From Shigella phage ESh1, in sequence record ON528715: a stretch of DNA of 39,034 nt. One strand, 5' to 3'. A program made the position numbers and the translations under genes. Shown piece by piece: positions 18,161 through 19,931 of the stretch (position 1 is its first letter; each line of letters begins with the position of its first letter). The notes under the pieces are model-generated. The model made no database searches, was not told the DNA's origin, and worked only from the letters and a program-made list of their open reading frames with translations.

Positions 18161-18183
18161 TAATTAAACTCACTAAAGGGAGA
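18161..18183 (+). promoter_or_regulatory. Phage RNAP promoter phi3.8-like
   Basis: TAATTAAACTCACTAAAGGGAGA followed by ACCACAACGGTTTCCC; here it directly precedes gene 4. Confidence 0.75.
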
Positions 18184-18230
18184 CCACAACGGTTTCCCTT
18201 TGTTCGCAATGTTGATTAAGGAATAACCAT

Positions 18231-19931
18231 ATGGAATTAGAACAAGATAGTATTTTCCTGTATCATGCTCCTTGCGAGAACTGTGGGTCTTCTGATGGTA
18301 ACTCCGTGTATTCTGACGGGCACCAATTTTGCTTTGTATGTGAGCACAGGGTTCCAGCCTCAGAAGAACGCAAACAGGAGCTATCATCAAGAAGACGTAT
18401 AGTCGGTGGAGGTAAACCAATGTCATACAACGTATGGAACTTCGGGGAGTCCAATGGACGCTACTCCGCGTTAACTGCGCGAGGAATCTCCAAGGAAACC
18501 TGTCAGAAGGCTGGCTACTGGATTGCCAAAGTAGACGGTGTTATGTACCAAGTGGCTGACTATCGTGACCAGAATGGGAACATTGTGAGTCAGAAGGTTC
18601 GAGACAAGGATAAGAACTTTAAGACCACTGGTAGCCACAAGAGTGATGCCTTGTTCGGGAAGCACTTGTGGAATGGTGGTAAGAAGATTGTCGTCACAGA
18701 AGGTGAAATCGACATGCTTACCGTAATGGAACTTCAAGACTGTAAGTATCCTGTAGTGTCGTTGGGTCACGGTGCCTCTGCCGCTAAGAAGACATGCGCT
18801 GCCAACTACGAATACTTTGACCAGTTCGAACAGATTATCTTAATGTTTGACATGGACGAAGCAGGACGCAAAGCAGTTGAAGAGGCCGCACAGGTTCTAC
18901 CTGCTGGTAAGGTACGAGTGGCAGTTCTTCCATGTAAGGATGCAAACGAGTGTCACCTTAATGGTCACGACCGTGAAATCATGGAGCAAGTGTGGAACGC
19001 TGGACCGTGGATTCCTGATGGTGTTGTATCAGCTCTTTCGTTACGTGAACGAATCCGTGAGCACCTATCGTCCGAGGAATCAGTAGGACTACTTTTCAGT
19101 GGCTGTAGTGGTATCAACGATAAGACACTTGGTGCCCGTGGTGGAGAAGTTATCATGGTCACTTCCGGTTCCGGTATGGGTAAGTCAACGTTCGTCCGTC
19201 AACAAGCTCTCCAATGGGGCACAGCGATGGGCAAGAAAGTAGGCTTAGCGATGCTTGAGGAGTCCGTTGAAGAGACCGCAGAGGACCTTATAGGTCTACA
19301 CAACCGTGTCCGACTGAGACAATCCGACTCACTAAAGAGAGAGATTATTGAGAACGGTAAGTTCGACCAATGGTTCGATGAACTGTTCGGCAACGATACG
19401 TTCCATCTATATGACTCATTCGCCGAGGCTGAGACGGATAGACTGCTCGCTAAGCTGGCCTACATGCGCTCAGGCTTGGGCTGTGACGTAATCATTCTAG
19501 ACCACATCTCAATCGTCGTGTCCGCTTCTGGTGAATCCGATGAGCGTAAGATGATTGACAACCTGATGACCAAGCTCAAAGGGTTCGCTAAGTCAACTGG
19601 GGTGGTGCTGGTCGTAATTTGTCACCTTAAGAACCCAGACAAAGGTAAAGCACATGAGGAAGGTCGCCCTGTTTCTATTACTGACCTACGTGGTTCTGGC
19701 GCACTTCGCCAACTATCTGATACTATTATTGCCCTTGAGCGTAATCAGCAAGGCGATATGCCTAACCTTGTCCTCGTTCGTATTCTCAAGTGCCGCTTTA
19801 CTGGCGATACTGGTATTGCTGGCTACATGGAATACAACAAGGAAACAGGATGGCTTGAACCTTCAAGTTACTCAGGGGAAGAAGAGTCCCACTCAGAATC
19901 AACAGACTGGTCCAAAGACACTGACTTCTGA
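18231..19931 (+). CDS. 4: DNA primase/helicase (gp4A); internal start for helicase form 4B at 18420
   Basis: 566 aa; Zn-finger region CENCGSSDG...CFVCEH, Walker A GSGMGKST; near-identical to T7 gp4 after about residue 60; internal Met (MSYNVWNFG) at 18420. Confidence 0.95.
19320..19342 (+). promoter_or_regulatory. Phage RNAP promoter phi4c (inside gene 4)
   Basis: CAATCCGACTCACTAAAGAGAGA. Confidence 0.7.

Follow-up and report, generated by a model that had tools for sequence, protein, structure and literature searches.

The DNA examined here is the 39,034-nucleotide (nt) sequence of Shigella phage ESh1 (ON528715), hereafter the window, in which the primase-helicase gene, gene 4, lies directly behind a T7-type promoter. 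In phage T7, an HNH endonuclease gene, gene 3.8, stands between the two. From comparison with T7 and related phages, the 71-nt interval between gene 3.5 (lysozyme) and gene 4 of the window is a polymorphic site, here unoccupied, at which a free-standing HNH endonuclease gene is inserted in other phages, and gene 3.8 and the adjacent part of gene 4 that encodes the zinc-ribbon (Zn-ribbon) of the primase, its first 55-60 codons, behave as one cassette. The gene is present in some relatives and absent from others, and the sequence flanking it is inherited together with it, such that occupied and empty alleles differ beside the insertion. Overall, we favour, at a probability of about 0.75, a reading in which the window has the empty site, the T7 state arose by invasion of gene 3.8 together with its Zn-ribbon segment, and gp3.8 is an endonuclease of the homing type.

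In the T7 reference (NC_001604), the phi3.8 promoter is at 11180 and gene 3.8 at 11225-11590 (366 bp, 121 amino acids (aa), annotated as an HNH endonuclease); the start of gene 4A at 11565 falls inside gene 3.8, giving an overlap of 26 nt. T7 gp3.8 matched the Pfam family HNH_3 (E 3e-15), in keeping with the HNH-like gene that a first-pass annotation of the window had given for this position of T7. The same annotation had proposed that gene 3.8 has no counterpart here, and this held: neither pairwise alignment nor blastn found a window counterpart of T7 11213-11586, and a tblastn search of the whole window found no homologue or remnant of gp3.8 (best E 0.46). The window is not a carrier of a gp3.8-type HNH_3 gene. 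For T7 gp3.8 itself, a Pfam search at relaxed threshold gave no second domain and a PDB sequence search no meaningful relative; only a homologue at the same site, 49% identical, had a sub-threshold match to an AP2 DNA-binding domain.

The window is a Teseptimavirus genome in circularly permuted form, with an identity to T7 of about 92%. By blastn the two were colinear end to end, ungapped columns were 90% identical, and T7 position 1 corresponded to approximately window position 6829. The nearest record was Shigella phage ESh3 (ON528717), with 99.3% identity across 17700-18500 and 96.2% identity over 92% of a 24-kb segment; judged by these alignments, the window phage is a relative of ESh3 and a separate isolate. 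Gene 3.5 (93.6% nucleotide identity to T7 gene 3.5; annotated as endolysin/amidase in relatives) is separated from gene 4 by 71 nt that contain only the promoter, a 5' leader hairpin and the ribosome-binding site of gene 4 (Table 1). No plus-strand open reading frame (ORF) of at least 30 aa was present in 18160-18230, and an Rfam scan of the whole window returned no RNA family, in this gap or elsewhere. A mis-assembly or an overlooked small gene might be considered, as the window is a circularly permuted assembly, but the same 67-71 nt spacer occurs in ESh3 and in at least 10 independent genomes, and together with the empty ORF and Rfam results this leaves an artefact with practically no credence.

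The promoter was confirmed as one of the phi3.8 type standing directly before gene 4, as had been described, with 47 nt from its end to the gene 4 ATG. T7 phi3.8 reads TAATTGAACTCACTAAAGGGAGA, from which the window promoter departs at one base, position -12. Relative to the class III consensus it has four differing bases, at the same positions at which phi3.8 differs, and a scan with that consensus (TAATACGACTCACTATAGGGAGA, up to 3 mismatches) therefore missed it. A core pattern recovered it; the window has 13 such T7-type cores, where chance would give 0.03, and the T3 promoter consensus had no matches. On the 23-bp T7 consensus (-17 to +6) with its conserved core CTCACTAnAGGGAGA, the sequence was classed as a T7 RNA polymerase promoter. 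The promoter is syntenic with that of T7, directly 3' of gene 3.5, and is kept in ESh3, JeanTinguely and ESh6. With the +1 G predicted at 18178, it would transcribe gene 4 directly through a 53-nt leader. The leader is nearly identical to that of T7 as far as GTTCGCA (18202-18208) and includes a hairpin whose sequence is common to both phages by alignment. At 18209-18230 the T7 homology stops; the ribosome-binding site and ORF of gene 3.8 begin there in T7.

Window gp4 has the CxxC...CxxC motif in its translation, full-length homology to T7 gp4A and the internal 4B start of a T7-type bifunctional primase-helicase. Identity to T7 was very unevenly distributed, at 94.2% for the promoter and leader, 62.8% for a 163-nt block at the 5' end of gene 4 and 96.5% for gene 4 from the 4B ribosome-binding site on. 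The whole divergent block runs from ~18209 to ~18407, covering the first ~59 codons of gene 4, and ends at the 4B ribosome-binding site and start, where site and ATG are conserved (18408-18422). This profile bears out the earlier suggestion that the divergent N-terminus of gene 4 marks a recombination junction.

Such a profile also bears on whether an ancestor with the T7 arrangement could have lost gene 3.8 by a clean deletion that placed the promoter beside gene 4. Decay of the homing endonuclease gene (HEG) does happen at this site: one surveyed locus (L060, 3005-3121) holds a 34-aa remnant of gene 3.8, deleted in frame, in which the start and the last ~30 codons, those overlapping gene 4, are kept and the HNH domain is lost. 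Laboratory strains of T7 with deletions at the site exist as well (H133). A deletion would, however, keep the T7-type Zn-ribbon, and the L060 remnant occurs together with a Zn-ribbon allele like that of T7; both remnant and allele are missing from the window, whose divergent block lies inside flanks of 94-97% identity. The start and ribosome-binding site of its gene 4 are also unlike those of T7 and common to many empty genomes, including a T3-like one, and we consider secondary loss very unlikely. The window gene 4 start seemed to align to the 3' terminus of T7 gene 3.8; this was taken as chance, since a T7-like beginning (MDNM..) is found in other HEG-less alleles, for example L026.

To place the empty site among relatives, GenBank phages and IMG/VR were surveyed. 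In GenBank, 46 records matched 17700-18500 in one place over 80% or more of its length. From IMG/VR, 80 loci were fetched with the lysozyme query, 79 of which were usable and 15 close relatives. Ten of these 15 had an empty spacer of the same 67-71 nt, three carried a T7-type gene 3.8 (T7 itself, phiA1122-type and one other), and two held more distant HNH genes at the site. Close relatives mostly lack gene 3.8, its absence is an ordinary feature, and the first-pass annotation is amended in that the arrangement is not unusual. ESh3, N30, C5, HZ2R8, EG1, CICC 80001 and other Teseptimavirus share with the window the lysozyme gene, the 71 nt with the promoter and the gene 4 Zn-ribbon allele, with point differences only. 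The junction TTGATTAAGGAWTAACCAYATGGAA was present in 8 IMG/VR contigs, the T3-like L020 among them, and exact-pattern IMG/VR scans for both junction types gave no contigs beyond those already surveyed. Across the 79 loci, gp3.8 homologues (76-100% aa identity) were found in 13, from several lineages; all lie immediately 5' of gene 4 and overlap it, and the HNH_3 catalytic domain is intact in every one. Other small ORFs occur between lysozyme and gene 4: in the Klebsiella-type loci L032-L085, one to several tandem hydrophobic ORFs of ~40-68 aa (spacers of 180-480 nt), and in T3-like loci a Cys-rich ORF of 35 aa instead.

The Zn-ribbon block was found in discrete alleles, and these followed the presence of gp3.8 and not the phage lineage. 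The T7-type allele (..VFLYHIPC..NSLFSDGH..CYVCEKW..) accompanied gp3.8 at 13 of 13 positive loci in at least three lineages, ten of these loci being from lineages in which the gp4 core is only ~75% identical to that of T7. The window-type allele (..IFL[YF]..[EQ]HRV..) was found at 62 of the 65 gp3.8-negative loci, and in two loci (L012 and L016) another HNH gene was linked to an allele of a third type. The boundaries of the cassette could be read from a Klebsiella-type carrier (L036) and non-carrier (L070), which hardly differ as far as the start ATG of gene 3.8 or gene 4 and are near-identical again from ~55 codons into gene 4; these two boundaries are those of the T7/window pair.

Within the Zn-ribbon segment, the 17-nt run TCTTCTGATGGTAACTC showed no variation, even at synonymous positions, among 31 distinct HEG-less alleles from several lineages, and was variable in the 13 gp3.8-linked alleles. 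As a hint, this conservation makes the run a candidate for part of the sequence that gp3.8 would recognize. Recoding of a Ser-Ser pair (AGTAGT in T7 vs TCTTCT) was considered as an immunity mark and rejected, since Klebsiella-type gp3.8-positive alleles use TCN and one of them (L038) has TCTTCT. T7 gene 4.1 has no protein-level counterpart in the window. A 45-aa ORF at 18265-18402, in the same relative (+1) frame as T7 gene 4.1 and inside the Zn-ribbon block, is probably meaningless.

The lysozyme-to-gene-4 spacer takes other forms in near relatives. ESh6 and JeanTinguely agree with the window in promoter, leader and type of gene 4 allele, and ESh6 (L003, 732-1166) has another HNH_3 gene (144 aa) 5' of the promoter, overlapping a locally diverged 3' end of the lysozyme gene. 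In JeanTinguely (L004, ~760-850), an insert of 86 bp lies at this position. With these two counted, the spacer is a hotspot that occurs in at least four states of occupancy. That sibling phages can differ in having a gp3.8-like gene at the site is already published: Citrobacter phage SH5 has a gp3.8-like HNH gene, 54% identical to T7 gp3.8, before and overlapping the primase-helicase gene, and its siblings SH4 and Dev2 are without it (PMC4925675). Those phages belong to a different genus from the window, and the linked primase N-terminus was not analysed in that paper.

The remaining endonuclease-like genes of the window and T7 were also compared. The claim that their complements differ was upheld, with genes 5.3 and 7.7 absent from the window and an HNH_3 gene present at 13383-13796, and with two amendments: T7 gene 2.8 is also missing, and gp5.3 is of the PD-(D/E)XK type, not HNH. 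The window HNH_3 protein shares 39% identity with T7 gp2.8 and gp7.7. With a phi1.3-type promoter core (13362-13377) before it, its gene overlaps the ATG of the ligase gene (13793), a layout of promoter, HEG and overlap that repeats that of T7 phi3.8, 3.8 and 4. Just 5' of it, the 3' part of gene 1.2 (13059-13299) has 45-78% identity to T7; gene 3 (endonuclease I) over its entire length has 74.5% nucleotide identity, vs 93.6% for the next gene. Beside the missing gene 5.3, gene 5.5 (23105-23400) has 42-57% identity to T7, and beside the missing gene 7.7, gene 7.3 (25798-26128) has 62-77%.

Four of the five endonuclease-gene indels between window and T7 adjoin a block of less than 75% identity: gene 1.2 at the window HNH gene, gene 3 at 2.8, the 5' end of gene 4 at 3.8, and gene 5.5 at 5.3. 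Such blocks with 100-nt margins make up ~22% of the genome, and the chance of four in five is roughly ~0.01, which is a rough estimate. A stronger statement, that all divergent blocks abut endonuclease genes, is true for 16264-26900 and was weakened genome-wide, where only 4 of 16 do so. Blocks below 75% identity without an endonuclease neighbour include the C-terminus of gene 0.7 (9763-10000), genes 1.7-1.8 (15611-16264) and gene 12 (30972-31700).

Ordinary mosaicism could produce much of the same pattern. In that case gp3.8 would not be an active site-specific endonuclease, gene 3.8 and the Zn-ribbon block would be exchanged by general homologous recombination at the conserved flanks (promoter leader and 4B start), and their coupling would reflect tight linkage. 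Several observations point this way and weigh against homing. The overlap of gene 3.8 with the gene 4 start hinders separation of the two, and much of their coupling could be due to simple physical linkage. There are also exceptions to the coupling: the T3-like L020 has a T7-like Zn-ribbon allele and no endonuclease gene, and a GenBank-wide tblastn search found T7-like Zn-ribbons without a gp3.8 gene in a few more phages, such as phiYeO3-12 and PP81. Twelve of the 16 low-identity blocks are not beside an endonuclease gene. Between lineages, gp3.8 is 76-79% identical, the Zn-ribbon ~81% and the gp4 core ~75%; the cassette is no more alike than its flanks, and there is therefore no sign of recent transfer across lineages. 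The surveyed loci are mostly from Klebsiella phages and are not phylogenetically independent, and in the searched literature gp3.8 has a comparative-genomics mention only, with no report found of cleavage or homing activity. Mosaicism alone, on the other hand, does not sit easily with the adjacency of four of five endonuclease-gene indels to hyper-divergent blocks, with identical cassette boundaries that recur in independent lineages, with a catalytic domain left intact in all 13 carriers, or with the sporadic occurrence of the gene in each lineage, as is characteristic of selfish elements. Weighing both sets of observations, we regard mosaicism without homing as unlikely, though it deserves serious attention.

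Under the empty-site reading, the T7 arrangement would be derived, through invasion by a cassette made up of gene 3.8 and the Zn-ribbon coding segment, and the window would never have been invaded or would have been restored by recombination with an empty allele. By analogy with the free-standing homing endonucleases of phage T4, gp3.8 would cut or nick gene 4 of the HEG-less type close to where insertion occurs, and repair from a co-infecting HEG-bearing genome would copy in the gene along with a resistant flanking Zn-ribbon segment. SegF, SegG and MobE of T4-like phages reportedly carry out such intronless homing with localized marker exclusion (Belle et al. 2002; Liu et al. 2003; Wilson & Edgell 2009). 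Experiments on the T4 systems have demonstrated both the sites of cleavage and co-conversion. The likeness extends to an endonuclease gene between conserved genes, present or absent among relatives, to a co-inherited flank and to an HEG-bearing genome that differs beside the insertion. The gp3.8 family differs in belonging to HNH_3, not GIY-YIG, and may include an AP2-like domain. A more specific proposal, that gp3.8-family HNH endonucleases home into the primase-helicase gene by cutting the Zn-ribbon coding sequence of HEG-less alleles, with the invariant 17-nt run as candidate core, and bring with them a resistant replacement module, is tentative and in our judgement possible rather than probable.

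Coordinates of the site and of the other endonuclease-gene sites are collected in Table 1. With respect to the T7 region phi3.8-3.8-4A/4B (NC_001604, 11162-13265), the window has the same lysozyme gene, leader hairpin, 4B start and rest of gene 4, and differs in being without the 366-bp gene 3.8 and in carrying the other allele of gene 4 at its ribosome-binding site, its start and its first ~59 codons.

Table 1. Features of the gene 3.5-gene 4 site and of other endonuclease-gene sites in the window
Feature	Position	Strand	Basis or remark
Window's only HNH_3 endonuclease-like gene, 137 aa	13383..13796	+	Pfam HNH_3 E 1.5e-8; T7 without a gene at this site
Junction where T7 gene 2.8 (HNH_3) is absent	17248..17260	+	Gene 2.5 end 17248, gene 3 start 17249
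Gene 3.5 (lysozyme/amidase), 151 aa	17704..18159	+	ORF; left flank of site; stop codon 18157-18159
T7-RNA-polymerase promoter, 23-mer TAATTAAACTCACTAAAGGGAGA, homologue of T7 class II phi3.8	18161..18183	+	One mismatch to T7 phi3.8
5' leader hairpin of transcript, 9-bp stem AGGGAGACC / GGUUUCCCU	18177..18199	+	Predicted fold -16.5 kcal/mol, z -2.4
Empty-site junction with gene 4 Shine-Dalgarno AAGGA (18218-18222; 8 nt 5' of ATG)	18209..18230	+	Alignments
Gene 4A, primase-helicase, 566 aa	18231..19931	+	ORF; 93.9% aa identity to T7 gp4A; same start annotated in ESh3
Zn-ribbon (primase zinc-binding) module of gp4, HEG-less allele	18231..18407	+	Pfam Zn_Ribbon_Prim E 2.8e-8, residues 11-38
TCTTCTGATGGTAACTC, 17-nt run, candidate part of gp3.8 recognition site	18288..18304	+	Conservation only
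Internal gene 4B (helicase) start with ribosome-binding site GGAGGTAAACC	18420..19931	+	Aligns with T7 11743-11757; right edge of divergent block
Junction where T7 gene 5.3 (PD-(D/E)XK endonuclease-like) is absent	23096..23098	+	Alignment, protein search
Junction where T7 gene 7.7 (HNH_3) is absent	26128..26134	+	Alignment, protein search

Three further features of the window stand apart from the site. Over 6829-7716, the permuted sequence has a single copy of the terminal repeat and, at 7566 in the early promoter region, an insertion of 150 nt relative to T7. The C-terminal part of the tail-fibre gene 17 (2201-3366) has little or no similarity to T7, with a minimum of 42% identity and no blastn match to T7 over 2322-3366, and probably constitutes a different receptor-binding module.

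As a selfish gene, gene 3.8 is dispensable and sporadically distributed, and its lack in the window matters little alone. The clean link in several lineages between gp3.8 and a swapped Zn-ribbon is a by-product of the comparison and a modest addition to what was known of the site. The divergent gp4 N-terminus in such genomes is best read as a linked mobile module and gives no evidence of an adaptive change in the primase. Were the proposed homing into the Zn-ribbon coding sequence true, an essential replication domain would be held in a long-lived polymorphism of two alleles across several T7-like genera, and the window would be a natural susceptible recipient. If gp3.8 does target the HEG-less allele, T7-like phages would offer a simple system for intronless homing and marker exclusion; members of this group are common subjects of engineering and components of therapy cocktails, in which cassettes of this kind could pass between co-infecting relatives.

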